57,794 nt of DNA from a virus (lineage: Duplodnaviria > Caudoviricetes), in the IMG/VR virus record IMGVR_UViG_3300036846_000250, positions 1 to 57,794 of that record. One strand, written 5' to 3'. Below the pieces are notes generated by a model, which saw only the letters and a list, made by a program, of their open reading frames with translations, searched no databases and had not been told where the DNA came from. The position numbers and the translations under genes are program-made. Below are positions 402-57,794 of this stretch, piece by piece. Numbering within the stretch: the stretch's first letter is position 1; the number at the start of each line of letters is the position of its first letter.

Positions 402-878
402 TCATGCGAAATATCCGGCGCAAATCGGTCCGATGGAACGGGCGACCGAATCGGCTGCTTTAAGGTGACGACCGCAAACGATGCAACGCGCATATTGCGT
501 CAGGAACGCCTGCGCCTCTTTCAGCGGCCACTTGTCGGCTTCGGTCAGATTGTAGATCGCGCCAGCGCGATACACAGTCTCGAAATCGACTTTTTCGCCG
601 TGCTCGGTCATGCGAGGCGGCGACGCGATTACTTCTTTCGCGTAGCAACGGGTTTTGTCCTTGTTAGGCTTGACCACGTAGATGCGTCCATCTTTGCGAT
701 ATACGCCGACGCCGACGGCTTTGCCGCCGTTGGCTGCGAACGTGTTCGCGGTTGTGGTTTGCTCCGGACACTCAACGTGTTCGACGCCTCCGCCGCGTTC
801 CCACTCGACTTGATCGCCGACGTTTATATTGCCACCGCATTTGCGGCAGCGTGCTGGATATTTTGAAGTGATTTTCAT
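402..878 (-). CDS. Zn-ribbon protein with C-terminal DUF6011-like motif
   Basis: CRKC...H..C at N-terminus and CIVCGRHL..ADSVARSIGPICA at C-terminus; GAAAGGA RBS before ATG 878. Confidence 0.65.
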   Translation of the reverse strand: MKITSKYPARCRKCGGNINVGDQVEWERGGGVEHVECPEQTTTANTFAANGGKAVGVGVYRKDGRIYVVKPNKDKTRCYAKEVIASPPRMTEHGEKVDFETVYRAGAIYNLTEADKWPLKEAQAFLTQYARCIVCGRHLKAADSVARSIGPICAGYFA

Positions 879-967
879 TCTGTAGGTTTCCTTTCGGTGT
901 GTATGTTTTTGAAGCGTGATTGCTTCCTGCAACGCCGACCGGATGGAACAGTCGGCGTTGCGTGGAA

Positions 968-1864
968 TCACTCTGCTGCTTCGTCGTGGTTGACGTCGAG
1001 GACGTAGTCAGCGGCTCGGTGCGCTGCTGCGGCTGCGTGGACGACCATCTTGTGATCGTTCTTCAACGCTTTTAACCAGCCTTTGATGTAGGCGGCGCTG
1101 TGGTCGGCGGTGTTCTCGATGCCGGAAATCGCACACAGGAATGCTGCGGTCATTTCGGCAATGAGTTCTTCCTTCGCATACGGCTCGGAACCGAACTGCT
1201 TGGCATCTTCGGCGCATCCGGCGAAGCGGCCTTCGCGTGACGCGTGCCCTGTCGAGTGCGCCAGTTCGTGGAACAGCGTGGTGTAGAATCCGCTCGGACT
1301 GTCGAACGATTCTTTGACCGGCATTTTGACTCGGTCGAACATCGGCGAGTAACATGCTGCGCTGCCGTTGTAGATGATCTCAGGACGCTTCGGCATTCCG
1401 GCGACGATCTTCTCCGCTTCGGCGACCGGATTAAATTTCTTCGCCGATTTTTTCGGTTTCTCGACCTTCGGCAATTTGGCTTCGAGGCCGTCGCACTGCT
1501 CGACGTTGAACACACGATAGTAGCGAAGCAGGAACACGCGTTTCGTTTCGCCTGTTTTCTTGTCTTCGATCTCGTCGCGTTTCCAGAATACTGCCAGCGT
1601 GGACTGCTCGCCTGCGCGAACTTGTCCGCCGAGCTTGGCACACTGGTTGTAGGTCAGCCAATATGGCGACGCGTAACCTGCTGCGGCGAGCATCCAAACG
1701 TTGATGCCGCGATACGGCCGCTTGCTGACCAGATTTACTGGCATCTGAGGGCGACCGCTGTTATCGACTGTCCACGGCTTGCGCCACGGAATTGTGCCGC
1801 CTTGCAACAGGGCGATGATTTTGTCGGTGACGATCTGATATACGTCTGTGAACTGTTTTTTCAT
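968..1864 (-). CDS. ardC: ArdC-like antirestriction/ssDNA-binding protein with zincin-like metallopeptidase domain
   Basis: IPWRKPW, PYRGINVW, WLTYNQ, YRVFNVEQ, HELAHSTGH, YAKEELIAE, YIKGWLKAL motifs; start taken at MKKQFTD. Confidence 0.9.
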   Translation of the reverse strand: MKKQFTDVYQIVTDKIIALLQGGTIPWRKPWTVDNSGRPQMPVNLVSKRPYRGINVWMLAAAGYASPYWLTYNQCAKLGGQVRAGEQSTLAVFWKRDEIEDKKTGETKRVFLLRYYRVFNVEQCDGLEAKLPKVEKPKKSAKKFNPVAEAEKIVAGMPKRPEIIYNGSAACYSPMFDRVKMPVKESFDSPSGFYTTLFHELAHSTGHASREGRFAGCAEDAKQFGSEPYAKEELIAEMTAAFLCAISGIENTADHSAAYIKGWLKALKNDHKMVVHAAAAAHRAADYVLDVNHDEAAE

Positions 1865-1936
1865 TTTGTGTGTGTATGTTTGCGACGCAATTTGCAGCGT
1901 CGTTTGCACGGCCATTCGGCGGTGCGTGGTTTGTTT

Positions 1937-2012
1937 TGGTCTGTCTCATCAGCGTGCGATGACCAGTGCGCACGAACGACGGAAAAACTTAATTTCCCTC
2001 CGTCGTTTCGAC
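1937..2012 (-). ncRNA. Type II hammerhead ribozyme (HHR-1)
   Basis: Minus strand: GUC-GAA-A-CGACGGAGGGA/UUUUUCCGUCG-U-U^-CGUGCG/CGCACG-CUGAUGA-GAC; loop I UGGUC pairs with 3' tail GACCA; predicted cleavage between 1975 and 1974. Confidence 0.9.
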
Positions 2013-2372
2013 TTCATTTCGACGATCCACATGTTGGCTGGCGCGTTTCTTTTTCTGGTGGCCACACGCAAGGGCAGAGCCGTGATAACCCACGGCGGCA
2101 CAGCTGTTACAGTGATCGAGTCAGCGATGGTGATCTTTTTCGGTTGGCCACCGCTGCAAGTGCATTCTCAAACGTTCGGTTATTTCTTCAATCAGGCGCG
2201 TGGAATAAATCTCACTCTGCTGACTGCGAATCTTTAGGCGGGTCGGACGCCAATGGTATCAAAGAACTGACACGAGAATCACGCCGGATAAGACAAAAAC
2301 AACAGGAAAAACAAAAAAAACAGAAAAAGATTTGGCGGTGCCTGTTTTCCCCTGCGTGCGCCCCTCCGATGG

Positions 2373-2400
2373 AAGCTTATCTGCGTTTGGTGATAAGCTT
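2373..2400 (+). repeat. 28-bp palindromic element, copy 1
   Basis: AAGCTTATCTGCGTTTGGTGATAAGCTT in the divergent promoter region. Confidence 0.95.
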
Positions 2401-2427
2401 TCCCGCTTTACGGCCGGAAAATATTTC

Positions 2428-2463: not shown

Positions 2464-2766
2464 ATGGCTACTAAAAAACAAACCGAACTGCATATCGAGG
2501 GCAAAGGCGTTTCGCCTGCGAACATTCCAGAGATCGACAAGCTTGCTGACGATTACATCAAAGAACGCGACAAACGCATGAAACAAACTCCGCGCGAAGT
2601 CGCCGCCAAAGGCAAATTGATCGACGCGCTGCATGAGCACGCCGACCAACTGAAAAATCCTGACGGCGACATTCTGTATCGCATGGACAGTTTGCTGATC
2701 ACGTTGACCGCTGGAAAAGAAAAACTGCAAGTGCGCGACGTGAGCGAACAAGACGAGGCGCAATGA
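2464..2766 (+). CDS. Hypothetical protein
   Basis: MATKKQTELH...; ATGA overlap with next gene. Confidence 0.7.
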   Translation: MATKKQTELHIEGKGVSPANIPEIDKLADDYIKERDKRMKQTPREVAAKGKLIDALHEHADQLKNPDGDILYRMDSLLITLTAGKEKLQVRDVSEQDEAQ

Positions 2767-3263
2767 TCGCGCACAGCCAGCGTAGCGTGAGAGAGGCACG
2801 CGGACTCGTTACGCTGACCGATGACGAAGCGCGACGCGCTGTCGAAGCTGGTCGCAAACGACATGCTGCCTCGCGCGTGCAACGCCTGCACAATGCACGC
2901 GAGGATTTGCCTACAGGCGAATGGATGCTGCACGATATCATGGGCGCACTGGGAGAATTCGCTGCATGCAAAGCGCTCGGTCGGACATGGGAGGCTCGCA
3001 TCAATAACTTCCACAACGCCGATTTCGGAGAACGCGCCCAAGTGCGCACATCCACATATCGCAATGCCTGTCTCATCGTTAGGCCAAAAGACAATGATGA
3101 TCATTACTTCATCCTCGTTGTCGGTGATGCGCCTCCGAATAAAACGTTCACAGTCATCGGCTACATCAAAGGTGCAGACGCCAAACGCCAACGGTGGCGT
3201 CGCAATCCGCGAGGCATTGCTCCTGCGTATTTCGTTCCTCAATCGGATCTGTTGCCTCTGTGA
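2763..3263 (+). CDS. Hypothetical phage protein, possible restriction-endonuclease-like fold
   Basis: GALGEFAACKALG...ADFG...QVRTS pattern; translationally coupled. Confidence 0.55.
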   Translation: MIAHSQRSVREARGLVTLTDDEARRAVEAGRKRHAASRVQRLHNAREDLPTGEWMLHDIMGALGEFAACKALGRTWEARINNFHNADFGERAQVRTSTYRNACLIVRPKDNDDHYFILVVGDAPPNKTFTVIGYIKGADAKRQRWRRNPRGIAPAYFVPQSDLLPL

Positions 3264-4042: not shown

Positions 4043-5948
4043 CGAGTATCTAGCGACCAAAAAGTTCTGCTGGTCGTTCGTTTCCGTCGTTAGGCCACCG
4101 TCGAAAATCACGCTTTCCGAGTGGGCGGACAAGTATCGCGTGCTCTCGTCTGAGAGTTCGGCCGAACCTGGTGCGTGGGTCACAGCGAAAGCGCCCTACG
4201 AAAAAGAGATCATGGACGCGATCAGTGATCCGTTCGTGCAGCGCGTGGCGATACAAAAAGCTGCGCAGCTCGGAATCACTGACGCGGCGATCTTGAATCC
4301 GGTCGGCTACTTCATGGACGCCGATCCGTGTCCGATCTTGGTCGTGCAGCCGACAATCGAAATGGCTGAGACGTTCTCGACCGACAGGCTTGCGCCGATG
4401 CTGCGCGACAGCAAGCGGCTGCGGCACAAAGTATCGGACGCGCGTTCACGCGACAGTTCAAACACGCTGCGCCGGAAAGCGTTCAAGGGCGGATTCGTGG
4501 CGCTCGGCGGCGCGAACAGCGCGGCGTCACTCTCTGGCCGACCGGTGCGAGCGGTGCTACTGGACGACGTCGACCGATATCCGGCGAGTGCCGGAACGGA
4601 GGGCAATCCGCTGCAACTGGCAATCGCTCGCACGACCGCATTTTGGAATCGCAAAATTGTGATCGTGTCGTCACCCGGCATCCGAGGCATATCGCACATC
4701 GAGCGTGAAATGGAGGACTCGACGCAGGAACACTGGTATCTGCCCTGTCCGGAGTGCGAGTGCATGCAAATTCTCGACTGGGACAGGATTCGATTTGCCG
4801 ATATGACGCATCGTTGCCTCGAGTGCGAAAAGTATTTCGAGAAATTTCTCTGGCTGGCTGGCGAGGGCGAGTGGCGAGCGCACAAGCCGTTCAACGAGCG
4901 CGGCGAAAAGATTTTGAAACGCGGCTTCTACCTGAGCGGCCTCTACAATCCTTGGATCGAATGGGAAATTCTTGTCGACGAGTTCATCAAGGCGGTCCGC
5001 GCCAACGAGGAGGGCGACATCGAGCCGTTGAAAGCGTTTCGCAATACGCGGCTCGGACTGCTGCACGACGAGAGCGGGACAAAAGTCGAGATCGATCTTT
5101 ACGCCGAGCGGCGCGAGGACTACGACGCGGAAATTCCCGACGGTGTTCTGGCGTTGACTGCTGGCGTGGACGTGGGCGAATACGCGTTGAACTACGAGGT
5201 CGTCGGCTGGGGCATAGGGCGTGAATCGTGGGGCATCGAATACGGTTTGATCGACGGCGATCCGCGCGAGGCCGACGTGTGGGACATACTTGACGAAGTG
5301 CTTTATCGCCAGACGTGGACGACGAGCGACGACAAAAAAATGCGCTGCCGGAAAATCGCTGTCGACAGTGGTTACGCTGCGGACTTCGTCTACACCTACA
5401 CCAAGATGCGTCAGCCGCGTTGCATTGCGATTAAAGGCATGGGCGGACTGGGCCGACCGTTCATCATCGGTGCTGGCTCATACACCAAAGGCAATCGCGC
5501 TCGGTTGCAGCCGATAGGCGTCGACAACGGCAAAGAGGAAATTGTCAATCGCCTGCTGGTGTCCAAGGTGGGGGCTGGTTACTGTCACTTTCCACGACTG
5601 AAAAATGGCGAAGCGACGCGCGGCTACGACGAGGAATATTTCAAAGGGCTGACGGCGGAGCGCCGGATCGTGAAAGCGAAACTCGGTTTCCGGACATACA
5701 TCTGGACGAAACGATTGTCGCAGCGGAACGAGCCATTCGACTGCCGGAACTACGCGCTAGCTGCGCTGGCGATGCCGTCGAGCGGCATTCATCTTGACAC
5801 GATGAGACGCGACATTTTCAGCGTGGCGGAAACAAAGAACGAGTCGACGGTGTTCGGCGCACAGGCGCGATCAATGACAGCGCCGCCTCCGCCGTCGCAG
5901 GGCGAGTCGCGCGGCGGTTTTGGTGCGCAGAATCGGCCACTGACGTGA
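4005..5948 (+). CDS. terL: Terminase large subunit, lambda GpA family
   Basis: LSEWADKYR, KAAQLG (Walker A variant), LLDDVDRYP, CPEC, AGVDV, AVDSG, RNEPFDCRNYA. Confidence 0.95.
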   Translation: MEATATTASLRRDEYLATKKFCWSFVSVVRPPSKITLSEWADKYRVLSSESSAEPGAWVTAKAPYEKEIMDAISDPFVQRVAIQKAAQLGITDAAILNPVGYFMDADPCPILVVQPTIEMAETFSTDRLAPMLRDSKRLRHKVSDARSRDSSNTLRRKAFKGGFVALGGANSAASLSGRPVRAVLLDDVDRYPASAGTEGNPLQLAIARTTAFWNRKIVIVSSPGIRGISHIEREMEDSTQEHWYLPCPECECMQILDWDRIRFADMTHRCLECEKYFEKFLWLAGEGEWRAHKPFNERGEKILKRGFYLSGLYNPWIEWEILVDEFIKAVRANEEGDIEPLKAFRNTRLGLLHDESGTKVEIDLYAERREDYDAEIPDGVLALTAGVDVGEYALNYEVVGWGIGRESWGIEYGLIDGDPREADVWDILDEVLYRQTWTTSDDKKMRCRKIAVDSGYAADFVYTYTKMRQPRCIAIKGMGGLGRPFIIGAGSYTKGNRARLQPIGVDNGKEEIVNRLLVSKVGAGYCHFPRLKNGEATRGYDEEYFKGLTAERRIVKAKLGFRTYIWTKRLSQRNEPFDCRNYALAALAMPSSGIHLDTMRRDIFSVAETKNESTVFGAQARSMTAPPPPSQGESRGGFGAQNRPLT

Positions 5949-7701: not shown

Positions 7702-7800
7702 TTACCACGCAAATAGCAGGGATTGAATTTCTTGGCAATTAAATTTTTTAATTATACTCGTTTTTTCCCTCCGGAGACTCTGCTATTGTCGCCGTTCGGA

Positions 7801-8154
7801 ATGCCCGAACAGACTGTCACCGCTCCTGCGCCGACCGAGATTCAAGTCGTTAGGCCAGCGGTCACTGACACGCCGCCTCCCTCGAATACGTCGCCGCCGC
7901 CTCCGTTCGCGTCGTGGTGCGACTGGGCGCGGAACGGATATTTCAACGCGCTGGCTGCGCTTAATGCTGTCGGCACTGGCGTCAAAGCGTATCACATTGG
8001 CTCGCGCGGCGTGGAATATCTGACGGCGACCAACGTGTGGGCGATCGTGGACCAGTGGCGCAAGCTCTACGAATACTACTGCGGCGCGGACGCGCTTCCG
8101 CCGTCGATTACCGGACGCGACACAGCAATGCGTGTCGTGCCGCGTGACGTATGA
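7801..8154 (+). CDS. Head-tail joining protein (gpW-like)
   Basis: KAYHIGSRGVEY motif and C-terminal RVVPRDV directly before a lambda-type portal. Confidence 0.7.
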   Translation: MPEQTVTAPAPTEIQVVRPAVTDTPPPSNTSPPPPFASWCDWARNGYFNALAALNAVGTGVKAYHIGSRGVEYLTATNVWAIVDQWRKLYEYYCGADALPPSITGRDTAMRVVPRDV

Positions 8155-9902: not shown

Positions 9903-11086
9903 ACGCACTACCAACAGACTACTACAAATTCACTTGCGAAGCTGGCGACGAGCCGACTGTCGCGGAACTTTTGATCTTCGACGTCATTGGCAACTGGGAG
10001 GAAATCGGCGAAGTCTCAGCGAAAGCGTTCGCACGCGACTTGGCTGCGCTGCCGAAAAGCGTGAAGCGCCTCGACCTGCACATCAACAGCCCCGGCGGTT
10101 CGATCTTCGATGCACAGGCGATTTACTCGCGGCTGGCCGATCATGCGAGCACGAAAAACGTCTACATCGACGGACTGGCCGCGAGCGCGGCATCTGTCAT
10201 TGCGATGGTCGGACACAAAATTTACATGCGGTCGAATGCGACCATGATGATGCATTTGCCCTCCGGATTCTCGATCGGCAATGCAGACGACATGCGCAAA
10301 ATGGCCTCCGCTCTGGACACGCTGACGGAGTCGATGATCAATGTCTACGCTCGGCGAAGCGGCTTGCAGCGTGACGAAATTCGCGGCCTGCTCGCAGCCG
10401 AAAGCTGGTTCTCGCCCGAGCAGGCCGTGAACAAAGGTTTTGCCGACGAAGTGCGCGGCGTGGTCAAGGCTGCGGCCTCGTTAGGCAACAAGCGATTTTC
10501 TTTCAACGGAGCGACTTTCAATCTGTCTCGGTTCTCCAACATTCCGGCGTTTGCCGATCAACAACCAACACGAGGAACACAAACCATGAACACACAAGCA
10601 CCGCCTTCGGGCGATCCACCGCCGACGCCGCCTGCGAGTCCGCCGACGCCGCCTGCGAATCCACCAACTCCACCGAATCCGCCGCCGAACGATCCGCCGC
10701 CGCCGAACACAGCGCCTGCGCCTGCTGCGCCTGCTGCGCCTGCGGCTGCTGCGGAGACTGACGTGCAACGCGGCGTCCGGCAGGAACGCGAGCGCGTGAC
10801 AGCGTTGCAGGCGCTCGATAGGCCAGCGACGCACACGATCATCGAGGCCGCGATCAAAGACGGAATGTCTGTCGCGGACGTGACCGCCGCGTGCATCGAC
10901 GCGATGGACAAAGCGTCGAGGCAAAACGCGAGGCGAGCGGACGCCAGCGTGCTTACGAGAGTTCCTGGCAGCACGACCGAACTTGTGCAGGAGGATGAAA
11001 ACGATTTCGGTGCGCTGCTGACACGCAAGGTGAAAGCCTGCGTGAAATCGCGCGGCCACAGGTCAGCTTTGAACAGTCGAAACTAA
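9899..11086 (+). CDS. ClpP-type head maturation protease fused to scaffold via Pro-rich linker
   Basis: HINSPGGS, IDGLAASAASVI, MMMH, ESWFSPEQAVNKGFAD; C-terminal QERERV..LQAL. Confidence 0.92.
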   Translation: MNALPTDYYKFTCEAGDEPTVAELLIFDVIGNWEEIGEVSAKAFARDLAALPKSVKRLDLHINSPGGSIFDAQAIYSRLADHASTKNVYIDGLAASAASVIAMVGHKIYMRSNATMMMHLPSGFSIGNADDMRKMASALDTLTESMINVYARRSGLQRDEIRGLLAAESWFSPEQAVNKGFADEVRGVVKAAASLGNKRFSFNGATFNLSRFSNIPAFADQQPTRGTQTMNTQAPPSGDPPPTPPASPPTPPANPPTPPNPPPNDPPPPNTAPAPAAPAAPAAAAETDVQRGVRQERERVTALQALDRPATHTIIEAAIKDGMSVADVTAACIDAMDKASRQNARRADASVLTRVPGSTTELVQEDENDFGALLTRKVKACVKSRGHRSALNSRN

Positions 11087-13469: not shown

Positions 13470-14029
13470 TGGTTGCGATCCAGATCGATGCGAGGGAACT
13501 GCAGAAGCTGCAAAAGCAGATCGCCCATATCAAGGGCGCTGTGCCGAGAGCGACCTCGATCGCGGTTAATCGCGCTCTGAATAAAGGGCGGACGGAAGTG
13601 AAACGCGAGATCCGGAAAATCTACGAGATCAAAGCAAAAGACATTCCGGTGCAGGTCGTCGGGGCCAGTGTCGTTAGGCCTTACGGCTACGTGACACTGA
13701 AACAGGGAATGCTGGACTTGAACAAGTTCAAGGTGCAGCCCAAGGGCGTGCAGCATAAAACTCCACGACGCCCGATCAAGGCGACGGTGCGGCGCGGCCG
13801 AGGCGGCATGATCGCACACGGGTTCGTTGCTGCGATGCCAAGCGGTTACACTGGGCCGTTCGTGCGCGTCGGGAAGTCGCGCCATCCGATCCGGAAACTG
13901 CTGGCGATCAGCTCGGCGATCATGGCGAGCCAGCCGAGCGTTGCGCCTGCGGTTGAAAAAGCGATGACCGACACAATGGCTTTGTCGATGAACCAACAAA
14001 TCAAACGCATACTGAAACCGAAAGGTTAA
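13469..14029 (+). CDS. Minor tail/neck protein (gpZ-like)
   Basis: AVNRALNKGRT..KREI...Y.IKAKDI, F.R.GKSR.PI; TAATG coupling. Confidence 0.8.
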   Translation: MVAIQIDARELQKLQKQIAHIKGAVPRATSIAVNRALNKGRTEVKREIRKIYEIKAKDIPVQVVGASVVRPYGYVTLKQGMLDLNKFKVQPKGVQHKTPRRPIKATVRRGRGGMIAHGFVAAMPSGYTGPFVRVGKSRHPIRKLLAISSAIMASQPSVAPAVEKAMTDTMALSMNQQIKRILKPKG

Positions 14030-14199: not shown

Positions 14200-14352
14200 A
14201 TGGGAACAATTCTTATCATCATTCTGATCCTGCTGCTGCTCGGCGCGTTTCCACGCTGGCCATACAGCACAGGCTGGGGCTACGGGCCGAGCGGTTTGCT
14301 CGGGTTAATTTTGGTTATCGTGATCATCCTCCTGTTGTTAGGCAAATTATAA
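14200..14352 (+). CDS. DUF3309-like small membrane protein
   Basis: MGTILIIILILLLLGAFPRWPYSTGWGYGPSGLLGLILVIVIILLLLGKL matches the family pattern. Confidence 0.85.
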   Translation: MGTILIIILILLLLGAFPRWPYSTGWGYGPSGLLGLILVIVIILLLLGKL

Positions 14353-15290: not shown

Positions 15291-15622
15291 CCACAGCGAG
15301 GCTAATCACAGGACAAGTGATCTACATGGGACCACAAGTGCCGCATCTTGGCCTGAGCTACAGCAACATTTTCCGAGACGGAATCTACAAGCATCTTTAC
15401 GATTCGATCGCCAAATGCCCTGCGCTCGGACAACTGTTCGTTCCGATCAAAGAGTGCGCTGTCGTTAGGCGCGAACTGAATTTTGATTACACCCACAATA
15501 TGCGCGGCACGACAGGCCGCCACGTAACGTTTTACCGCGAAGTCCAGAAATGGCTCGCACAACGCAAACCAAAAGAAACAAAGCCTTCGGGCGTCACCAT
15601 GGAACAAATAAAACATGCCTAA
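15287..15622 (+). CDS. Conserved pre-sheath hypothetical protein
   Basis: IYMGP....GL....IF.DG...CPAL..LFVP pattern. Confidence 0.65.
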   Translation: MTTARLITGQVIYMGPQVPHLGLSYSNIFRDGIYKHLYDSIAKCPALGQLFVPIKECAVVRRELNFDYTHNMRGTTGRHVTFYREVQKWLAQRKPKETKPSGVTMEQIKHA

Positions 15623-17114
15623 TCTCGGACCATTCAAACACGGCGTTAGCTGGGCGGACGTTCCCACTAGCGTCATTGCGCCTGTTCAAGCAGACGTAGG
15701 AATCAACGTCGTTTTCGGCTCAGCGCCTCTCCATCTGCATCCAAACGGAAAGGATTTTGTAAACAAGCCCCGCGTTTACAACCGCTACGAGGACGCCGTA
15801 GCGGAGCAGGGCTATTCAAACAACTGGAACACCTACGATATCTGCGAGCACATGGACGCGGTTTTCGTTGAGTTCGGCGTTTACCCAGTGATCTACGTGG
15901 CGGTCAACGACCCTGAGCACAACGCCACGGTTGTCCCGCCTGCGCCGTTTCCTCTGGTCAACGGCCAAGTGGACACAGGGCTTGAACTGATTCGCTGGCT
16001 GACTGTGGTCAAAGATGAGACCGGCGCGACTACATACGTCGAGGGCACCGACTACTTGGTGTCGCTGTCGGCCAACAATACAACGATCATCACGCGCATC
16101 GCAGGCGGCGCGATTGTGAACGACGACGACACGATCGAAGTCAGCGGCAGTTCACCGAGCGCTGCGCCAATCGACTCTGCTGACATCATCGGCGGCATCG
16201 ACATTAACACTGGCGCACGCCACGGCCTTGAAGTGATCGAGGACGTTTTCCAAGCGACCGGCTACATACCTGGCGTGATCATCTGCCCGAAGTTCTCGAG
16301 CGATCCGGTTGTCGCTGCGGCGATGGAAGCGAAGTCGGAGAACATCAACGGCTGCTTTGCCTGCACATGCCTGATCGACGTGGACACCAAAGTGGTGAAA
16401 AAAACGCAGGACGTGAACGCGTGGAAAAATGCGAACAACATCGTTTTCCCGCGACAGGAATGCTTGTTCGGCAAACCTGCGCTGGTCGGCACGACGCAGA
16501 AAAAAGTCTACAATTTTGCGTCGCAGCAGGGACCGCTCCTCCAGTGGACGGATATCTACCGAGGCGACGGCCTGCCGTATTACTCGCCGTCGAACAAAAA
16601 CCTGCGGATGAATTCGCTACAGCTCGACAACGGCGACGAGATCAACATGCATCTGCTCGACGCAAACATGCTCAACGGGCAGGGCGTGATCACGGCTCTT
16701 AACTGGATCGGCGGCTGGCGGTCGTGGGGCAACCGGACGGCGTGCTACCCGAGCGACACGGACGTGCATGACATGTTCATTCCGGTGCGCCGGATGTTCG
16801 ATTACATCGGGAACACGATCGTGCTGACCATCTGGCAAAAAGTGGACGAACCCGGCAATCGCCGGCTGATCGACGCCATCGTGAATTCGTTGCAGCTCTG
16901 GCTTGACGGCCTGACGAATCAGCAGGCCTTGTTAGGCGCACGCATCGAGTTTCGGCAGGACGAGAATCCGACGACAGAACTGCTCAACGGGCACTATCTG
17001 TTCCACGTTTATTTCGCAGTCCCGACGCCAGCCGAGTGGCTGGACTTCCGGCTCGAATACTGGGTTCCGTATCTGGCCAATCTGTTTACGACGGACGAAA
17101 CCGCAGTCGCTTAA
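15615..17114 (+). CDS. Contractile tail sheath protein
   Basis: FKHGV, APLH, IIGG, GLEVIE, SPSNK, LNGQGVITALN..GGWRSWGNRTACYP, FIPVRRMFD. Confidence 0.95.
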   Translation: MPNLGPFKHGVSWADVPTSVIAPVQADVGINVVFGSAPLHLHPNGKDFVNKPRVYNRYEDAVAEQGYSNNWNTYDICEHMDAVFVEFGVYPVIYVAVNDPEHNATVVPPAPFPLVNGQVDTGLELIRWLTVVKDETGATTYVEGTDYLVSLSANNTTIITRIAGGAIVNDDDTIEVSGSSPSAAPIDSADIIGGIDINTGARHGLEVIEDVFQATGYIPGVIICPKFSSDPVVAAAMEAKSENINGCFACTCLIDVDTKVVKKTQDVNAWKNANNIVFPRQECLFGKPALVGTTQKKVYNFASQQGPLLQWTDIYRGDGLPYYSPSNKNLRMNSLQLDNGDEINMHLLDANMLNGQGVITALNWIGGWRSWGNRTACYPSDTDVHDMFIPVRRMFDYIGNTIVLTIWQKVDEPGNRRLIDAIVNSLQLWLDGLTNQQALLGARIEFRQDENPTTELLNGHYLFHVYFAVPTPAEWLDFRLEYWVPYLANLFTTDETAVA

Positions 17115-17751: not shown

Positions 17752-18204
17752 ATGGATAACGACCTACTGGAAAAAGCTGAGCCTGCGGCGACCAATCGGT
17801 TGCCGCTTGGGCCTAACGACGAAAGCCACTCGGAAACTGAAACTGCAATTGAAACGCAATATCGAGAACTGGAAGTCGAGAAACCGTCCCCTCCGGTGCG
17901 ACTGAAATTTGATCCGCCGATCGAATACGACGGAGAAAAATACGACCAGATCGTGTGCGATTTCGACAAGCTGATCGGAAAAGATTTTCAGCGGATCGAG
18001 CGCGAGTTCGTCCACATGTATAAGGCGGAGAAAAACGAGACCGTGCTGCCGGAACTGAAACATTTGTTTCACTGTCTGGTGATCGCGCGTGCTGCCGATG
18101 TGCCGGTTGGGTTAATCTTCAAACTGCCAAGGAGGTATTACACGCCGATACGACTTGAAGCTCTAAAAGCCTGCGGCAGCTCGCCGGACACGGAGAAAGT
18201 CTGA
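17752..18204 (+). CDS. Tail assembly chaperone
   Basis: PIEYDGEKYD..DFDKL.GKD..RIE, ARAADVP; between tube and tape measure. Confidence 0.8.
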   Translation: MDNDLLEKAEPAATNRLPLGPNDESHSETETAIETQYRELEVEKPSPPVRLKFDPPIEYDGEKYDQIVCDFDKLIGKDFQRIEREFVHMYKAEKNETVLPELKHLFHCLVIARAADVPVGLIFKLPRRYYTPIRLEALKACGSSPDTEKV

Positions 18205-20661: not shown

Positions 20662-20997
20662 ATGGCTAACGGCATCCCGACTCCGCCTGCGCCTGTCGTC
20701 GTGCCGCCGTTCGTGCCGGACGCCACATACATTTCGTTAGGCCAGCCGAAGTCGCCGCGCATCTATGTCTCGACACAGGGCGATTGGTGGGATCTGATCG
20801 CCATTCGCGTTTACGGCCGCGTCCGAGGCAACGAGCATTTGATGTTTCGCCTGCTTGAAGCGAACTACGCGCTGCGGGAAGTCTGCAATTTTCCGGCTGG
20901 CGTGGCGGTGATTGTGCCGGACGTGCCGATCGTGAACGAAATTCCTCTGGTGCCGTGGAAAGCGGCTACTGCAATTCCATCTTCGTTGCCGCCATGA
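20662..20997 (+). CDS. Tail protein X (LysM-like)
   Basis: Y.STQGDWWDLIA.RVYG...LLEAN...FPAGV.V.VP...PW. Confidence 0.88.
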   Translation: MANGIPTPPAPVVVPPFVPDATYISLGQPKSPRIYVSTQGDWWDLIAIRVYGRVRGNEHLMFRLLEANYALREVCNFPAGVAVIVPDVPIVNEIPLVPWKAATAIPSSLPP

Positions 20998-37461: not shown

Positions 37462-38314
37462 ACACACACAATTGTCGTGGGCTGACATTCGCAGTTTGAT
37501 CGCCGACCGGATTCCAAAAGACCTTCTGGTTTACGGCGTGCCGCGCGGCGGCGCGGTCGTGGCTGCGATGCGCGGCCGCAACGTGGACAATGCGCCGGAC
37601 GCCGACGTGATCGTGGACGACATAATCGACAGCGGACGGACGCGCGACAAATTCAAGCACATGTTTCCTGACAAGATGTTCGTCGCGCTGATCGACAAGA
37701 CCGACCAGAGCGATCCGCATCTGCGCGACGGCTGGATTCATTTTCCGTGGGAGCCGCCAGCGGAGACCGACATACAGGAATCGGTGACGCGGATTCTGGA
37801 ATACATCGGCGACCGACCGGAGCGCGAAGGCTTGAAGGAAACTCCTGCGCGTGTCGTCAGGTCGTGGGACGAAATATTCGCTGGCTACAAAATGAAAGTC
37901 GAAGACGTGCTGTGCAAAGAGTTCGAGGCGGACGGCTACGACGAATTGATCATCTGCCGGAACATCGATTTCTACTCGACGTGCGAACATCATCTGCAAC
38001 CGTTCTTCGGACGTGCGCACGTCGGCTACATCCCGAAACGTAAAGTGGTCGGCCTGTCGAAGCTGGCGCGGCTCGTCGATCTGTTCGCGCGTCGGTTGCA
38101 GATACAGGAGCGACTGACAGCTCAGATCGCGGACGCGCTCGAGGAACATCTGCAACCGTTAGGCGTGGCGGTGCTGATCGAGGCGCAACATTTCTGCATG
38201 GTCTGTCGCGGCGTGCGCAAACAAAACTCCTGCATGACGACGAGCAGTCTGAAAGGTTTATTCCGGAGCGCGGAAGCTCGCGCGGAATTTTTCGCTCTGG
38301 TGGCGCGATCATGA
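37451..38314 (+). CDS. folE: Purine phosphoribosyltransferase-like domain fused to GTP cyclohydrolase I (FolE)
   Basis: N-terminal [23 protein letters not shown]; C-terminal [38 protein letters not shown]. Confidence 0.92.
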
Positions 38315-40391: not shown

Positions 40392-40625
40392 TTATTTAAT
40401 GTAGTGAACGAGCGCGAAGACGGCGGCGGCGATGAACACCGCAGCGCCAAGCAGGATCGCTACGGCGTGCCAGCCGGATATCGGCTGGTCAGGTTCACTG
40501 ACCGGCAGTCCTTCTTTGTTAGGCCACCAGCGGTCGTCGGCGAAATGTGCGCTGACGTGGCCTTTTTCGCCTTCGCAACGGTAATATTTGCCGTGCAAAA
40601 TTATGTTGTGCTTACACTGGCTCAT
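40392..40625 (-). CDS. Small Cys/His protein with C-terminal TM helix
   Basis: AAGGAG RBS; C...CEGEKGHVSAH; hydrophobic C-terminus. Confidence 0.6.
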   Translation of the reverse strand: MSQCKHNIILHGKYYRCEGEKGHVSAHFADDRWWPNKEGLPVSEPDQPISGWHAVAILLGAAVFIAAAVFALVHYIK

Positions 40626-42355: not shown

Positions 42356-42879
42356 GGTTTTTTTTTCCTCCGTGGAAGCTTATCTGCGTTTGGTGATAAG
42401 CTTTCCCAAACGCCAAGCGGCGCGTGCTGAATATCTTTGTCGTCGAGATTCGGACGCCCCATGCGCGAGCCGAATACACCGCCAAAGATGAATCGCTCGA
42501 CTATTGCGGCAATGCCGCTGATCGTTAGGCCGTGCGGATGTTCGCGGCGATAGCGCCGGAATAAATGCTCAGGCGTGGCTTGCGCTTTCATTACTTCGCG
42601 CTGCACCAGAATCAATGCGCCAGCGCATTCGCGCGTCTGCACGGTTTCCGGTGCGCGCTTGCCATTGATCTGCGGATGCCGACAGTCAGTCGGATGACAG
42701 GTCATGCGTTCGCCGGAACGCAGACCGCGCCACAGGCGGTTTCTGTTGGCGTCGCTATACCAAGCGAATCGATCGCCTGCCACGCGCGGCGATGGTTTGT
42801 CGCGATTGCTGACGCGCCACGGACATTCGCTACACGCTGCGTCTGCGGCTGGCTGGACTTGTTTTTCTCGTTTTTTCAT
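42352..42879 (-). CDS. Cys-rich hypothetical protein (DUF6283-like)
   Basis: ACSECPWR...MTCH...ECAG; C-terminus encoded by a repeat copy (SLSPNADKL). Confidence 0.6.
   Translation of the reverse strand: MKKREKQVQPAADAACSECPWRVSNRDKPSPRVAGDRFAWYSDANRNRLWRGLRSGERMTCHPTDCRHPQINGKRAPETVQTRECAGALILVQREVMKAQATPEHLFRRYRREHPHGLTISGIAAIVERFIFGGVFGSRMGRPNLDDKDIQHAPLGVWESLSPNADKLPRRKKKP
42376..42403 (+). repeat. 28-bp palindromic element, copy 12 (inside CDS)
   Basis: AAGCTTATCTGCGTTTGGTGATAAGCTT. Confidence 0.95.
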
Positions 42880-44043: not shown

Positions 44044-44175
44044 GGTTTTTTTTTCCTCCTTGGTTTTTTGTGGTTGACAATGATTTGTTAGGCTGTTAAA
44101 AAAGTGCTATGGCGCATGCTGCACAGGGCGCGGAGGCATAGTCGGCGAGACTTTGAACCTCCGCGCCTCTGGTTT

Positions 44176-47456: not shown

Positions 47457-48598
47457 AATGATCGCGCCTCGTCGAGATAGTATTTCGACTTCTTGAATAT
47501 GAGAAGCGACCCGAGACTGCGCTCGATGCTGCGCTTCGCATCTTTGCGCGTGCCACGTTTGGCGAGCAAATCTTCCAGCGCCTTGATCGAAAACGACAGA
47601 CAGGCGGTGGCGACTTCCTCTCCGTAATCGCGCCGGACATTGGCGATTGCCAGACCTTCGTTGGTGACGGCGCGTGTAAGTTTTCGCGCCAGCCGATAGC
47701 CGTCGATCGAGTCAGGATCGCGCTCCATCAGCTCGGTATACTGGTCGAGGATGTATTCGACCGAGTGCATCCGATCTTTCAGAGCGCGGACATGCTCGCC
47801 GCGTTCTTCGGCGGATCGCCTGTTAATCGCTGTGAAACCGCCGTCCTTGATCTCGTCGGCAATTGCGCGGTCAAGCGCCTCGTCCGCCGCGATGCGCTCG
47901 GGACAGACGCGCTTGGCGCGACACCACTGGCACTGGATGCCGCCTGCGATCCGGCGCTGATCCGGCTGCTGGATTACTTGCACGCCTCGGCGCACAATTT
48001 CCAGCAGATCGTCGGATTGCTTGCGGCTGTAGACTCTCGCCTCCCACAGGCTGTCCGGATGGTGCGGATGTATCAGCGCGGCGACGACTTCCAGCGCGTC
48101 ATAATGCTCGGCGAGCAATGCTGCTTCGCTGCGGATTTGCCAATTTATTCCGACAGGCGGCGGCGTGACCCAACCGGTCTTGTCGTCGATCACCAGCAGT
48201 CGGCGTTCGTTAGGCTGCCAGTCGTGGCGATCGATACGCGCCGACCACAGATGATTCAGATCGGCGTCGACGTCCCAGTGGCGTTCTTCAAACTCGATGA
48301 TCGCGCCCTCGAATCCGTATTCGTGGACGATCTCGCTCTCTGCGTAGGCAATGCGCGAGGCGGTTTTTTCTTCGTTCTCTGCGAGATCGGAGAAGTCGCC
48401 AGCGGCCAGCGCGTCGTGGATTCTTTTGCCACGCGCGGCGACGGCCGTGTCGTCCTCGTTAGGCATTCTCTGGCAGAGTGCCCTCTTACCTGGGCAGCGG
48501 AACTCGGAGTCGAATCCGCTGGCGCTCGGCAGGCCTTCGGACTCAATGTCGTGCGGATTTATTTTTTCGGGACGGCTGCGCTTTGCTCGCTTCGGCAT
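47453..48598 (-). CDS. PD-(D/E)xK exonuclease (DUF2800/Cas4-like)
   Basis: SAS.....CPG, G..IH, ARID, VIDDKTG, Q, CQWC.AK..CP. Confidence 0.8.
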   Translation of the reverse strand: MPKRAKRSRPEKINPHDIESEGLPSASGFDSEFRCPGKRALCQRMPNEDDTAVAARGKRIHDALAAGDFSDLAENEEKTASRIAYAESEIVHEYGFEGAIIEFEERHWDVDADLNHLWSARIDRHDWQPNERRLLVIDDKTGWVTPPPVGINWQIRSEAALLAEHYDALEVVAALIHPHHPDSLWEARVYSRKQSDDLLEIVRRGVQVIQQPDQRRIAGGIQCQWCRAKRVCPERIAADEALDRAIADEIKDGGFTAINRRSAEERGEHVRALKDRMHSVEYILDQYTELMERDPDSIDGYRLARKLTRAVTNEGLAIANVRRDYGEEVATACLSFSIKALEDLLAKRGTRKDAKRSIERSLGSLLIFKKSKYYLDEARSL

Positions 48599-49009: not shown

Positions 49010-49398
49010 CGCGCCTCCTCTCGTTTGCGCCGTCGCGGTTTCTTTTTGCTGCCATGTAGTTTTTCCTCCTTGTTAGGCCAATTCCAGTTCAGATGCCAGT
49101 GCGCTCCGGCGTGGCCTTTTTCGCCTAGGCACTGCAATTTTTCTCGACGCAGCTCATCGGTGACGATCGTTGTCGATGGACAGAGTTTGCTGCTCAACAG
49201 GTCTGGATGCGCTTCGACTGGCTCGACGGTGAGGTATGTCGCCTCCGGCCATTGTGCGCGTAGTTTCTCGACCGAATCGTAGACGAGCAGAAATCCGACC
49301 GACTCGTCCATCGGCGCGATGCGCTGCGGCATCGGCGTCAAGGCGGTGATTTTGTCCCACCGTTGCAGGATCATCACGATGTATTTCAGCTCAGCCAT
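49006..49398 (-). CDS. Hypothetical protein with C-x-GEKGH-x3-H motif
   Basis: AAGGAG RBS; motif shared with 40392..40625. Confidence 0.55.
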   Translation of the reverse strand: MAELKYIVMILQRWDKITALTPMPQRIAPMDESVGFLLVYDSVEKLRAQWPEATYLTVEPVEAHPDLLSSKLCPSTTIVTDELRREKLQCLGEKGHAGAHWHLNWNWPNKEEKLHGSKKKPRRRKREEAR

Positions 49399-49885: not shown

Positions 49886-51104
49886 TGTCGATTTCCTCCG
49901 CTGCGAGGCATAGCGCGGCGTCGAGCAACAAAGTATCTTCCTCCCATGTGCCTTTGTATGGTTTCGCCTGCCAGTTCTCGATCCACCATTCAAGCGACGC
50001 GCGGCTCAATTTGCCGAGCGGTGTGCCTTCTTTTTCGCCGAAATGGATTTTGACTCTGCGCCAATCATCGATGCCGTGCTGGCCGAGGAAATCGCGCGGC
50101 TTGCCGCCTTGCGAGAACTTGCGACGCGCCGGACGCTGCTGTTCTGCGGCTGGCGGCGTGGCTTTCGCTTTGCCGTTGACGCTCGGTTCGCGCTCCGGTG
50201 TGCCGCTGTCGAACGGAGATTTTTCCTGCGGCTTTTCCTGCGGCTTGTTAGGCTTTTCTTCGTCGGCCTGCTGCGCCTTCCATGCCGAGAGCAAACCTTG
50301 CTTCGATCTGTCGTCGAGGCACCGGCGCAAAATACCTGGCTTGATCGCGCCGACTGTTTTCGTGCGACCGTCGATGAGTTTTTTATCCTGCAAGAGGCGA
50401 AGCAAAAATCCCTCCGGTATATTGTGCTCCGACAGGAACGTGGACAGCTCAAGCAGATCGGCGGTTGCGGTGCTGGTTTCTGCTGCTGTGGTTTCCTCAT
50501 ACGCCTTGGTGCGGCGGTGGCCTTGCGTAGGCGACGACGAGGCGATGACGACGGAGTCAGTATCTTCGTCCGCTGTGAGGATGCCGAACGAATTTACAAA
50601 CGCGTATCGCTTGGCGAACGTGAGCGCGGCCGCGAATTTCTGCGCGTCGCTCATGTATGCCTCAGGATCAATCGGGACGAGGAACGACGAGCGTTCGGAA
50701 TGTCCGGCATTGTGCGTGACGATGCAGAACGCTTCGACCGAGCGGCCTTCGATTTTCGCGTCGGTGCGATAATTAAAGCCGTGCTCTTTCAGCAGGTCTT
50801 TCACCTGCGTGACGATGCTGTCCAGCGGCGCGTAACGATAGCGGACGCTCTTGCCGTCTTTGTTCATTACCTCCTTCGCCTTTTTGATGATCGGACACGC
50901 TGCTTGGAACGCGGCGAGCGCGACGTGAAACTGGTCACGCGCCCACTCCGACTTTAGCTGCGTGCGCATCGCTAGAAGTTTTTCCATCGTTTCGACGTTG
51001 ACGTTTTTGTCGATTGCCTGCGCGATCAGCAAGTGAACGTCTTTCGCATCGCCACTCAACGGAGCAGCGACGGTTTCTTTGACTGCGGTTTGTTTCTTTG
51101 CCAT
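49878..51104 (-). CDS. erf: ERF-family single-strand annealing protein
   Basis: Y.YAPLDSI, H..GH.E, Q..AAALTFAKRY...FGI...DEDTD. Confidence 0.85.
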   Translation of the reverse strand: MAKKQTAVKETVAAPLSGDAKDVHLLIAQAIDKNVNVETMEKLLAMRTQLKSEWARDQFHVALAAFQAACPIIKKAKEVMNKDGKSVRYRYAPLDSIVTQVKDLLKEHGFNYRTDAKIEGRSVEAFCIVTHNAGHSERSSFLVPIDPEAYMSDAQKFAAALTFAKRYAFVNSFGILTADEDTDSVVIASSSPTQGHRRTKAYEETTAAETSTATADLLELSTFLSEHNIPEGFLLRLLQDKKLIDGRTKTVGAIKPGILRRCLDDRSKQGLLSAWKAQQADEEKPNKPQEKPQEKSPFDSGTPEREPSVNGKAKATPPAAEQQRPARRKFSQGGKPRDFLGQHGIDDWRRVKIHFGEKEGTPLGKLSRASLEWWIENWQAKPYKGTWEEDTLLLDAALCLAAEEIDNG

Positions 51105-52804: not shown

Positions 52805-52884
52805 GGTTCCTCCTTGGTTTGTGGAGCGTGATTGCTCCGAGAGTGCGTCGCGGTTTGTTAGGCCGGACGCACGTTGCGGAACAC

Positions 52885-56543: not shown

Positions 56544-56581
56544 TTTGTGATTTACCTCCTATGGTTTGTCGTTTGTATGTG

Positions 56582-56679
56582 GGTTCTCTGCTCATCAGTG
56601 CAGGCGCGAACCGTTTGACGCCTACAGATTGCGCGAAGCTTATCTGCATTTGGTGATAAGCTTCAAGCGCAATTTCGCA
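56582..56679 (-). ncRNA. Type II hammerhead ribozyme (HHR-2) whose stem III contains the 28-bp palindrome
   Basis: Minus strand: UGC-GAA-A-UUGCGC..[repeat]..GCGCAA-U-C^-UGUAGGCG/CGCCUGCA-CUGAUGA-GCA; loop I GGUUC pairs with tail GAACC; predicted cleavage between 56627 and 56626. Confidence 0.9.
56636..56663 (+). repeat. 28-bp palindromic element, copy 16 (within HHR-2)
   Basis: AAGCTTATCTGCATTTGGTGATAAGCTT. Confidence 0.95.
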
Positions 56680-56693
56680 AATCAAATTTTTGG

Positions 56694-56987
56694 CTACTGC
56701 TGCATGGCGGCGATGGTTTCCGGCGACGGCTTTTTTATTCGCCGCCACACGGATTGTGCGACGGTCTCATTCCGTTTCTCGGCGAAGTGGAACATCGTTT
56801 GCAGACGCGCCTTGCTGGCCATGATCTTCGTCTGCGCTTTGTCGAGTTCCAAGCGTTCGCGTTGAATGAACTCGATCGAGTTGCGGTCTTGTTTGGTGCG
56901 GAACGTGGACTCGACCGACATTAGTTTGATCATCGCCGCTTCGAGCGAACGCTCGGCTTTGATGATTGCTTCGAGTGCTGATTTCAT
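56694..56987 (-). CDS. Coiled-coil hypothetical protein
   Basis: AAGGAGG RBS, MKSALEAII... Confidence 0.65.
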   Translation of the reverse strand: MKSALEAIIKAERSLEAAMIKLMSVESTFRTKQDRNSIEFIQRERLELDKAQTKIMASKARLQTMFHFAEKRNETVAQSVWRRIKKPSPETIAAMQQ

Positions 56988-57210
56988 TACTGCTTCCTCC
57001 TTGGTGGTTGTGTGTGTGTTTTTCTGACGACGCATGGATGCGAACGAGCCGCACCGATGACGGTATATTTTTTGCCTGTCTCGCGCTCACGAATCATCAA
57101 AGCGATTCGTTGCTTGAAGTCGGCAACCGACTCTGGCTGTGTGTATGTGTTTTTCATGGATTACTCCGCACGCCCGACAGCCACAGGCGCTGTCGGGCGG
57201 TTCGGAACGA

Positions 57211-57528
57211 TCACAGACTGATTGTCGGGCAGTCGACGACCAGACCGCCGCAGTATTCACATTGCGACGTGACCAATCGTTCGCCTGCTCGACCGGATGG
57301 ACGCGCGGCAATATCGCGGAAGCGATGCCGACGCGTTTGCCACTTGAATTTCGGCTCTGGCGCGTTCGGACAGATCGCCGTGCTATTCCATCCGCCGACG
57401 GCAATGATGGTTTTTTGCTGCTTTTGCAATTTGCGAAGCGTGGCTGCAAGATGGTGTCTGCCGACTCGATCCATCGCTGTCGCTGCTTCGGCCAACGTGT
57501 ATAACGGATGTTTCGTTTTCTTTTTCAT
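57211..57528 (-). CDS. Hypothetical protein with Zn-ribbon C-terminus
   Basis: MKKKTKHP...CEYCGG; GGAGG RBS; ATGA coupling. Confidence 0.55.
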   Translation of the reverse strand: MKKKTKHPLYTLAEAATAMDRVGRHHLAATLRKLQKQQKTIIAVGGWNSTAICPNAPEPKFKWQTRRHRFRDIAARPSGRAGERLVTSQCEYCGGLVVDCPTISL

Positions 57529-57794
57529 CGATAGGTTTGCCTGTAGCCTCCGTGTGTGGTGGTTAGGCCGACCAGCTTCGGCTGTTCGCCATTCGGCCAT
57601 ACTGGTGCGCCGCGCTTGAAGTCTGTCGGCTCGACAAACGACATGCTGGAATACACCAGCAATTGCGACGGCTTGGACGCGGCAGGGACTTCGGTCTGCG
57701 CAAGGCGAATTGCCATTGCAGGGACTTTGTCGACGCCGAAACCGTGTTCGCACACGGCGATGTAATAAGGTTTCTCGGTGTAATAAGTGACGAG
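57525..57794 (-). CDS. C-terminal part of the junction-spanning hypothetical protein (start at 220)
   Basis: Continuous frame across the 127-bp overlap. Confidence 0.7.
   Translation of the reverse strand, partial: LVTYYTEKPYYIAVCEHGFGVDKVPAMAIRLAQTEVPAASKPSQLLVYSSMSFVEPTDFKRGAPVWPNGEQPKLVGLTTTHGGYRQTYR
57668..57794. repeat. Terminal direct repeat (identical to 1-127)
   Basis: Direct sequence identity. Confidence 0.9.

Follow-up and report, generated by a model that had tools for sequence, protein, structure and literature searches.

TYGTTAGGC, a sharp nine-base word held almost entirely on one strand of a soil phage genome

The stretch of viral DNA analysed here (the window, 57,794 nucleotides; IMG/VR record IMGVR_UViG_3300036846_000250, positions 1 to 57,794; Duplodnaviria, Caudoviricetes) carries the heptamer GTTAGGC 32 times on its plus (+) strand and only once, at 17811, on its minus (−) strand, as counted by an exact pattern search of the whole window. 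We find that this heptamer is the core of a nine-base word, TYGTTAGGC, which is a selected, strand-specific word, presumably recognised by an enzyme that acts on or travels along one strand. The best single candidate for its function, which we put forward tentatively and by analogy with other phages, is a Chi-like polar signal for a RecBCD/AddAB-type helicase-nuclease of the host. The window is the entire record, and its first 127 bases are identical to its last 127, so that the assembly is circular with a unique length of 57,667 bp and an arbitrary position 1; it is the complete, circularly assembled genome of a myovirus-like soil phage. We refer to this phage as G000, and all other G and L labels denote relatives, genomes or loci with which it was compared. 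Its late genes lie on the + strand from ~2.3 to 38.3 kb and its early genes on the − strand from 38.3 kb past the arbitrary end to ~1.9 kb, and the word is sense to the former and antisense to the latter.

The number of copies is far above every expectation that we computed. Across 100 dinucleotide-preserving shuffles the heptamer occurred 2.3 times on both strands together and at most 6 times, and Markov models of order 1-3 predict 1.2-3.1 copies on the + strand. A codon-aware null, in which synonymous codons were shuffled inside each gene while the four intergenic copies stayed fixed, gives 5.96 copies on + (standard deviation 1.33, maximum 11 in 1000 runs) against the 32 seen, and 2.55 on − against the 1 seen. 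In coding DNA this null expects ~2 copies and 28 are observed; the excess is ~14-fold, and GTTAGGC is the top-enriched heptamer of the genome (z = 21.7, 200 synonymous-codon shuffles). The placement of 32 of 33 copies on one strand has a binomial probability of 8e−9. An earlier note on this DNA, made from its letters alone, had listed the copies, put the chance level at a few, and described the word as indifferent to gene direction. Each of its 33 coordinates proved exact, the dinucleotide, Markov and codon-preserving nulls agree on ~2 expected copies, and the copies divide 22:1 (+ to −) over the late (+) arm and 10:0 over the early (−) arm. The excess and the polarity also hold under the Markov and codon-aware models by which that note had suggested they be judged.

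When the 32 sites are aligned, information is confined to positions −2 through +6. The pyrimidine that the earlier note had seen before the heptamer is present at −1 in 31 of 32 sites, and we additionally find T at −2 in 27 of 32. The combined TY prefix occurs in 26 of 32 sites against a background of 0.155 (p = 3e−16), and the minus-strand copy at 17811 likewise carries a TC prefix; because of these preferences at −2 and −1 we take the full word to be the 9-mer TYGTTAGGC. The word is sharp, in that the 21 single-base variants of the heptamer, summed, show no enrichment (42 on + and 49 on −, with 55.6 and 61.0 expected). The copies are also placed more evenly than random: the gaps have a coefficient of variation of 0.67, compared with 0.96 for random placement (P = 0.012), and no gap exceeds 4705 bp, where under random placement the largest averages 7342 (P = 0.025). 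On average the gaps measure 1806 bp, matching the ~1.8 kb given earlier. The copies are listed below, each an exact GTTAGGC match with the bases at −2/−1 as its prefix and with the frame taken from a provisional gene set.

663..669, +, prefix TT, antisense in gene 402-971 (−), CCT AAC
3078..3084, +, prefix TC, GTT AGG in gene 2763-3263 (+)
4089..4095, +, prefix TC, GTT AGG in the terminase large subunit gene; position conserved in G004
7849..7855, +, prefix TC, GTT AGG in gene 7723-8154 (+)
10480..10486, +, prefix TC, TTA GGC in gene 9899-11086 (+)
13673..13679, +, prefix TC, GTT AGG in gene 13232-14029 (+)
14337..14343, +, prefix TT, intergenic
15464..15470, +, prefix TC, GTT AGG in gene 15287-15622 (+)
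16931..16937, +, prefix TT, TTG TTA GGC (Leu-Leu-Gly) in the tail sheath gene
17811..17817, − (the sole minus copy), prefix TC, in gene 17752-18204 (+)
18513..18519, +, prefix TT, TTA GGC in gene 18349-20610 (+)
19017..19023, +, prefix TT, TTA GGC in gene 18349-20610 (+)
19374..19380, +, prefix TC, TTA GGC in gene 18349-20610 (+)
20400..20406, +, prefix CC, TTA GGC in gene 18349-20610 (+)
20736..20742, +, prefix TC, TTA GGC in gene 20662-20997 (+)
23417..23423, +, prefix TC, TTA GGC in gene 22995-23492 (+)
24690..24696, +, prefix AC, TTA GGC in gene 24067-25299 (+)
27979..27985, +, prefix CC, GTT AGG in gene 27820-29007 (+)
30004..30010, +, prefix AT, ATG TTA GGC in tail-fibre gene 29891-31831 (+)
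30667..30673, +, prefix TT, TTA GGC in gene 29891-31831 (+)
32133..32139, +, prefix TC, GTT AGG in ParB-like gene 31866-32654 (+)
33253..33259, +, prefix TT, TTA GGC in DpdA/TGT-like gene 32591-33547 (+)
34101..34107, +, prefix TT, TTA GGC in gene 33544-34218 (+)
38158..38164, +, prefix CC, TTA GGC in GTP cyclohydrolase I gene 37427-38314 (+)
40518..40524, +, prefix TT, antisense in gene 40392-40739 (−)
42524..42530, +, prefix TC, antisense in gene 42352-42879 (−), codon CTA
44087..44093, +, prefix TT, intergenic
48209..48215, +, prefix TC, antisense in PD-(D/E)XK exonuclease gene 47453-48598 (−)
48458..48464, +, prefix TC, antisense in PD-(D/E)XK exonuclease gene 47453-48598 (−)
49072..49078, +, prefix TT, intergenic (provisional gene set)
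50247..50253, +, prefix TT, antisense in Erf gene 49878-51104 (−)
52857..52863, +, prefix TT, intergenic
57562..57568, +, odd prefix TG, antisense in gene 57211-57753 (−); conserved with TG in G004

As the earlier note had claimed, the sites fall in differing frames and use rare codons. Fourteen read G-TTA-GGC and seven GTT-AGG-C, while in minus-strand genes six read CCT-AAC and one CTA; the third reading frame is shut on each strand by a TAG or TAA within the word. TTA makes up 4% of Leu codons, and 14 of the 55 TTA codons in the gene set lie inside the word; AGG makes up 6% of Arg codons. Intergenic sites account for 4 of the 32, the non-coding share of the genome being 13.5% by the provisional gene set. 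We compared each copy with the aligned residues in related phages, in which that note had proposed to look for conservation at synonymous positions, and found that at many sites the residues are conserved while the word-forming codons are not. In the tail sheath, 7 of 7 relatives retain Leu-Leu-Gly and spell it by such codons as CTG CTC GGC, whereas G000 has TTG TTA GGC, in which the TTG codon also supplies the T at −2. At 27979, Pro-Val-Arg-Leu is encoded in 6 of 7 relatives through GTG or GTT with CGG or CGC, and in G000 through GTT AGG; at 30004, 6 of 7 relatives have Met-Leu-Gly and write its Leu with codons other than TTA. Elsewhere the residue itself is altered, at variable positions: at the 4089 site, where relatives show different codons and residues, TerL has Val-Val-Arg-Pro in G000 and Leu-x-Arg-Pro in relatives. 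Because relatives spell conserved residues with common codons and G000 spells them with rare, word-forming ones, it is strongly supported that selection acts on the DNA, writing the word through synonymous rare-codon switches. Together with the codon-aware nulls and the even spacing, these switches strongly support the earlier proposal of a selected polar DNA signal.

A search with TerL, the tail sheath and one early protein gathered ~120 related viral contigs. The relatives bearing on the word are as follows, with copies given as +:−.

G004, closest relative (TerL 82%), 9.2-kb fragment, 5:0
G003, 15.5-kb fragment, 1:8
G001, complete, 57.4 kb, 16:9 in TerL orientation, TY prefix in 17/25 (G002 is the same virus)
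L137, fragment, 0:6
L142, fragment, 0:6
L165, fragment, 5:0
L186, fragment, 2:4
G628, 50 kb, 89% complete, 9:12, with G instead of Y at −1 in 11/21 and all genes on one strand

The Markov expectation in word-bearing relatives is 0.2-4 copies per strand. For G001 a codon-aware null that keeps the copies outside called genes expects 11.7 against the 25 present, which is a moderate excess, and the counts of 0-8 in six complete or near-complete relatives (G005-G010) are close to those expected. Polarity is not fixed for the word, since relatives carry it on the opposite strand or on both, and the G at −1 in G628 suggests that the flank requirement differs among lineages. Where G000 and G004 can be aligned (~80% nucleotide identity), two of three alignable G000 sites are conserved and the third differs by one base in G004, the remaining sites of both phages lying in unalignable DNA; at the 663 position the 7-mer is present in G001 and has one mismatch in G004. 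In a tree of 49 distinct sheath sequences the 6 motif-positive tips are scattered, each with negative sisters; the word has come and gone repeatedly within one phage clade. Such a patchy distribution is as expected with a determinant outside the phage.

None of the phage genes that we considered as a determinant of the word withstood comparison. Three genes are common to G000 and G001 and missing from G005-G010 by tblastn, namely those for a 64-residue protein (48815-49009; no relatives found in sequence searches), a 113-residue protein (56694-57035) and a tail spike, and all three are absent from motif-rich G628, which rules them out. The HNH gene beside TerL (6140-6562) occurs in motif-poor G006 and G010 and is missing from motif-rich G001. 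A 7-deazaguanine DNA-modification cluster, described below, is present in G010, which lacks the word, and absent from G001, which has it; the early module of G001 is otherwise unrelated to that of G000, and the word is nonetheless the same. Judged from these gene contents, no accessory phage gene appears to track the word, so its reader would lie outside these genomes or be a core protein of varying specificity. A regularity of orientation that extends beyond G000 concerns the early genes, to which the word is antisense in three lineages (G000, 10:0; the early arm of G001, 8:2; the early part of G003, 4:1). Limited as it is to three lineages, this rule is firmer than the association of the word with strand composition.

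That association was examined at four-fold degenerate sites. On the + strand of G000 these have a GC skew of +0.18 and an AT skew of −0.10 in + genes and of +0.11 and −0.22 in − genes, so the + strand is G/T-rich through a transcription-independent, 'leading-strand-like' bias. Other words are polar in both arms as well (CTGCGC 82:8, GGTGCG 44:2, CTGCG 224:63), and CTG over CAG is the trimer most consistently skewed in both. Against the codon-aware null, CTGCGC has 82 copies on + with 38.7 expected and 8 on − with 28.4 expected; in relatives it is symmetric, for example 80:95 in G006. G004 (+0.17, +0.22) and L165 (+0.38) show the same bias with the word on the same strand, G003 has a weak opposite deviation (−0.08, AT +0.18) with the word on the other strand, and in G001 the bias is absent and the word is on both strands. 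However, L137 and L142 sit at the clade background (0.025 ± 0.089, 67 loci) despite having 0:6 copies each, L186 is inconsistent, and G010 has the strongest bias of all and no excess of the word. Because these four break the pattern, the association is only partial and the word is no by-product of the bias; a general rule that polarity follows four-fold-site skew holds for G000, G004, L165 and weakly G003, and fails for L137, L142 and L186.

The same data bear on two related readings, that the word is a guide for an FtsK-type translocase, like the FtsK-orienting polar sequences (KOPS) of bacteria, or that it merely reflects strand composition. In bacterial chromosomes, Chi and KOPS are short, polar and oriented along the G-rich leading strand, and the polarity of the G000 word on the G/T-rich strand is in keeping with either reading. 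Chromosomal Chi and KOPS, however, flip at the origin and terminus, whereas the word keeps one orientation over the whole 57.7-kb phage genome; no FtsK, Xer or dif element is seen in the window annotation; and the codon-preserving null, which retains gene composition, expects only ~2 copies, while G010 is more strongly skewed and not enriched. We regard both readings as extremely improbable.

What then reads the word? The reader might be the RecBCD/AddAB-type enzyme of the host, and on meeting the word this enzyme would be attenuated or turned towards recombination; its direction would be set by replication or by DNA entry, and the phage would benefit if its DNA ends or broken forks were protected and recombination stimulated. 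The G/T-rich 'leading-like' strand of G000 is the one that bears the word, which is antisense there to the early genes, and a single short word is strongly over-represented, as in Chi-rich phages (32 copies, ~2 expected). Two phages offer close parallels. LLS of E. coli has 23 Chi sites, 20 of them in the active orientation and one per 1.86 kb, and MD8 of P. aeruginosa has 32 Pseudomonas Chi sites, all on the top strand with the terminase at left (PMC12315714). In that study (Zheng et al. 2025), such lambdoid phages are Chi-rich and without Rec modules, and their Chi sites are interpreted as selected (PMC12315714). Like LLS and MD8, G000 has dozens of copies of one short word in almost one orientation (32:1, at 1.8-kb intervals on average), and they occupy the top strand if the genome is drawn with the lambda-family TerS/TerL, portal and capsid genes at left. 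Of the three mechanisms that the earlier note had offered, this Chi-like one stands as the best single candidate, while lagging-strand priming is possible with no primase behind it and a KOPS-like guide is unsupported.

Several observations weigh against a Chi-like function. In LLS and MD8 the word is the known host Chi, whereas the word of G000 is unenriched in the bacteria sampled. The 9-mer showed no enrichment in 609 bacterial genomes (208 from one phylum and 401 Pseudomonadota, including the unpublished G546), where its highest density, ~80 copies per 4.4 Mb, is ~25-fold below that in the phage and where it was usually outnumbered by its control word. In five GC-rich genomes the 7-mer was rarer than its control, 7- to 25-fold in four and ~4-fold in the fifth, and none of the 10 genomes counted in all beyond the 609 showed enrichment. 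Unlike those phages, G000 encodes recombination functions of its own (Erf and a PD-(D/E)XK exonuclease), and its sites are evenly spread rather than clustered near the right end. Its relatives carry the word in opposite or both orientations. By the rule of top strand with terminase at left, G000 (32:1), G004 (5:0) and L165 (5:0) agree, G003 (1:8), L137 (0:6) and L142 (0:6) are reversed relative to their lambda-type late genes, and G001 and G628 are mixed; the word is thus sense to late genes in three polar lineages and antisense in three, and a cos-orientation rule fails in half of the polar relatives. The skew exceptions L137, L142 and G010 fit poorly too, and the idea that each relative has a polar word of its own found no comparably extreme word in the 7 complete or near-complete relatives scanned. 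To our knowledge, known Chi words neither contain a stop codon in one frame per strand nor need rare codons, as this one does.

The closest anatomical precedent, absent from the readings of the earlier note, is the strand-specific nicks of phages such as tf, T5/BF23 and the phiKMV-like phages, and it is possible, if rather doubtful, that packaged G000 DNA carries single-strand interruptions at TYGTTAGGC. In tf, 14 nicks have been mapped physically, and their consensus is asymmetric, 9 bp long and degenerate at two positions (Glukhov et al. 2012, PMC3517423). Every tf site belongs to the top strand, whichever of the two convergent transcription units it falls in; the sites lie at positions similar to those in related phages, and they number only 17 when any single substitution is allowed (PMC3517423). 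TYGTTAGGC resembles the words of tf and the LUZ24-like phages in being a 9-bp one-strand word with scarce one-mismatch variants, partial positional conservation and lineage-specific variants. An asymmetric, one-strand consensus of 7-19 bp laid down regardless of transcription is what we observe, at 32:1 through both convergent arms; one-substitution variants are nearly absent beyond chance (42 and 49, with 55.6 and 61.0 expected); two of the three alignable sites are conserved in position in G004, one of them with its odd TG prefix; and the contrast of G at −1 in G628 with Y in G000 recalls the difference between the tf and LUZ24 consensus sequences. However, no nuclease gene co-varies with the word, although many early proteins belong to no known family, and no accessory gene is common to G000, G001 and G628. 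The word is on both strands in G001 and G628, and 32 sites are more than twice the number in any described case. The tf nicks were shown physically, at 14 sites, whereas the 32 sites of G000 are known from sequence. A nicking gene is identified neither in G000 nor in tf.

A second one-orientation system accompanies the word in G000. A hairpin unit of ~40 bp (AAGCTTATC - TGCRTTTGGT - GATAAGCTT), whose stem is often extended, recurs ~17 times, mostly within short intergenic gaps and with predicted folding energies of −11 to −17 kcal/mol. The loop word occurs 15:0 on the + strand, in both arms, and is found also in G004 (3:0), L002 (3:0) and L138 (2:0). Hairpin units are at these positions.

2374-2400, hairpin unit
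5967, hairpin unit
7467-7493, hairpin unit
13066-13092, hairpin unit
17650-17698, hairpin unit
20618-20644, hairpin unit
22960-22986, hairpin unit
27773-27799, hairpin unit
31833-31859, hairpin unit
35586, hairpin unit
39530, hairpin unit
42377-42403, hairpin unit
44627, hairpin unit
46593-46619, hairpin unit
52493-52519, hairpin unit
56637-56663, hairpin unit

The units could be single-strand hairpin signals, protein-binding sites, or elements related to repetitive extragenic palindromes (REP) or IS200. Elements of the REP/IS200-like kind are described as targeting the lagging-strand template (PMC6006769, PMC5027513).

These repeats on the same strand are among the features that would suit a role of the word in priming. 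Replication would then be unidirectional or of the rolling-circle type, and a primase or primosome would recognise the copies on the lagging-strand template while that is single-stranded, using them to load or to begin synthesis of the discontinuous strand. The 1.8-kb mean spacing, more even than random, agrees with such a role, as do the consistent skew of CTG over CAG in both arms and the position of the word on the G/T-rich strand (the lagging-strand template, if bacteria are a guide). However, the scanned proteins of the window contain no match to a primase or DNA polymerase family (two leads there point to AcrVA2-like and DUF932-like proteins instead), the early module of G001 is unrelated while its word is the same, and in L137 and L142 the word is polar although the skew is lacking. 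Primases are known to use sites of 3-5 nt, which also counts against priming. On balance we think this role improbable.

Alternatively, uniform orientation might be an escape from restriction, given that a Type III-like enzyme cuts only between inversely oriented sites and would leave head-to-tail sites unharmed. T7 provides the precedent, with 36 head-to-tail EcoP15I sites and a cutting reaction that needs inverted ones (PMC12707154). G000 also avoids many short GC-rich words, which is the usual mark of restriction pressure; against the codon-aware null we count GCGGGC 0 times with 44 expected, its complement 0 with 18.5, GGCGCC 1 with 34, GCCGGC 3 with 33, CCGCGG 0 with 29, GCGCGC 10 with 50, GCCTGG 0 with 22.5 and CCTGGA 0 with 22.8. 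Like the EcoP15I sites of T7, the word is asymmetric and uniform in orientation over a whole phage genome; unlike them, since the T7 sites confer escape by orientation and are in no large excess, it is strongly over-represented. A 14-fold excess built against codon preference is left unexplained by escape, for which plain loss of sites would serve better, and G001 and G628 keep both orientations. This explanation is disfavoured and has very little probability in our judgement.

Finally, the word might be a new kind of polar signal, a set of sites for a core protein of the clade (terminase, exonuclease/Erf or ParB-like) or for an unknown host defence translocase. Among the viral and metagenome matches listed, the dispersed word is met only in this clade, its flank preference varies between lineages and host enrichment is absent in the sampled genomes, all of which would fit; but no candidate protein emerged, and polarity is independent of the packaging genes. 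We consider such a signal rather doubtful. A narrower proposal, that the word is not a host Chi but a clade-specific signal evolved repeatedly without an accessory gene of its own, seems to us unlikely. It would take one of two forms. In the first, the word would be a 9-nt start for discontinuous synthesis on a long-lived single strand, working with the hairpin repeats; in the second, it would act as a label of 'self' at which a translocating defence nuclease of the host, distinct from RecBCD/AddAB, is halted or redirected.

The finding itself is real and robust. Short polar words show how DNA is replicated, entered or degraded, and in which direction, and G000 is among the clearest examples from an uncultivated phage (32:1, a sharp 9-mer, sites written by synonymous rare-codon changes), with a word that comes and goes, and changes strand, between closely related phages. 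A Chi function would make it the Chi of a soil bacterium and provide a sequence by which the host could be traced. As a nick site it would extend the T5/tf phenomenon to lambda-like myoviruses at record density, and if neither applies, it would represent a new signal class.

Searches for the word beyond the clade used pairs of close copies in a viral collection and triples in a metagenome collection. Among at least 80 loci in the viral scan the dense ones were tandem or inverted repeat arrays, and among at least 80 loci in the metagenome scan the hits were mostly repeat copies; neither held anything convincing. G623 has 12:4 copies and yet lacks the TY prefix, and L393 is cellular DNA whose 6 copies are partly a product of how it was picked. 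In the bacterial genomes two contigs, G032:C118 and G041:C2, looked dense, and the latter is ordinary bacterial DNA without the TY prefix. G041 is a bacterial metagenome-assembled genome of 3.6 Mb with 60 GTTAGGC copies, 22-23 of which fall in 60 kb of contig C2 (~36.8-96.3 kb; L193-L197, L201). They lie on both strands among ordinary genes (histidine kinase, SDR, tricorn protease, beta-lactamase family), and the cluster is probably unrelated to the phage word.

The packaging and structural genes of G000 comprise a small terminase, a lambda-family TerL with GpA ATPase and nuclease domains, a lambda-family portal, a gpE-type capsid protein, a tail sheath and tail fibres. Among the early genes are Erf (49878-51104), the PD-(D/E)XK exonuclease (47453-48598), an SF2 helicase and a ParB-like nuclease (55827-56543); the early arm opens with genes for an ArdC-like anti-restriction protein (968-1915) and a DUF6011 protein (402-971). 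Two further early-arm assignments are leads from a language model and atlas, a DUF932-like protein (40887-41927) and an AcrVA2-like protein (43054-44043), the latter shared with G003 only. We take the set of ArdC-like, DUF6011, DUF932-like, AcrVA2-like and ParB-like genes to recall the leading regions of conjugative plasmids. No tRNA or Rfam family was found in the window, and PDB sequence searches with three early proteins returned nothing usable. Isolated phages gave no megablast match and a best TerL identity of 47% by tblastn, and none of 185,579 species genomes held a TerL relative above 48% identity. The same or a near-identical phage is present as contigs in three soil metagenome runs; of 118 variant positions reported in those contigs, the 40 listed include none inside a motif copy, a number that proves little.

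The late arm ends in the 7-deazaguanine DNA-modification cluster (31866-38314), judging by which the phage DNA is probably modified at guanines. Its genes, in order, are these.

31866-32654, +, ParB-like
32591-33547, +, DpdA/TGT-like
33544-34218, +, ParB-like
34166-34867, GP88 family
36305-36769, QueD
36766-37461, QueE
37427-38314, +, GTP cyclohydrolase I (FolE)

Further upstream, the gene for the major capsid protein of the gpE family (11666-13066) encodes a C-terminal Rho_N/SAP-like domain of ~40 residues (residues 424-460).

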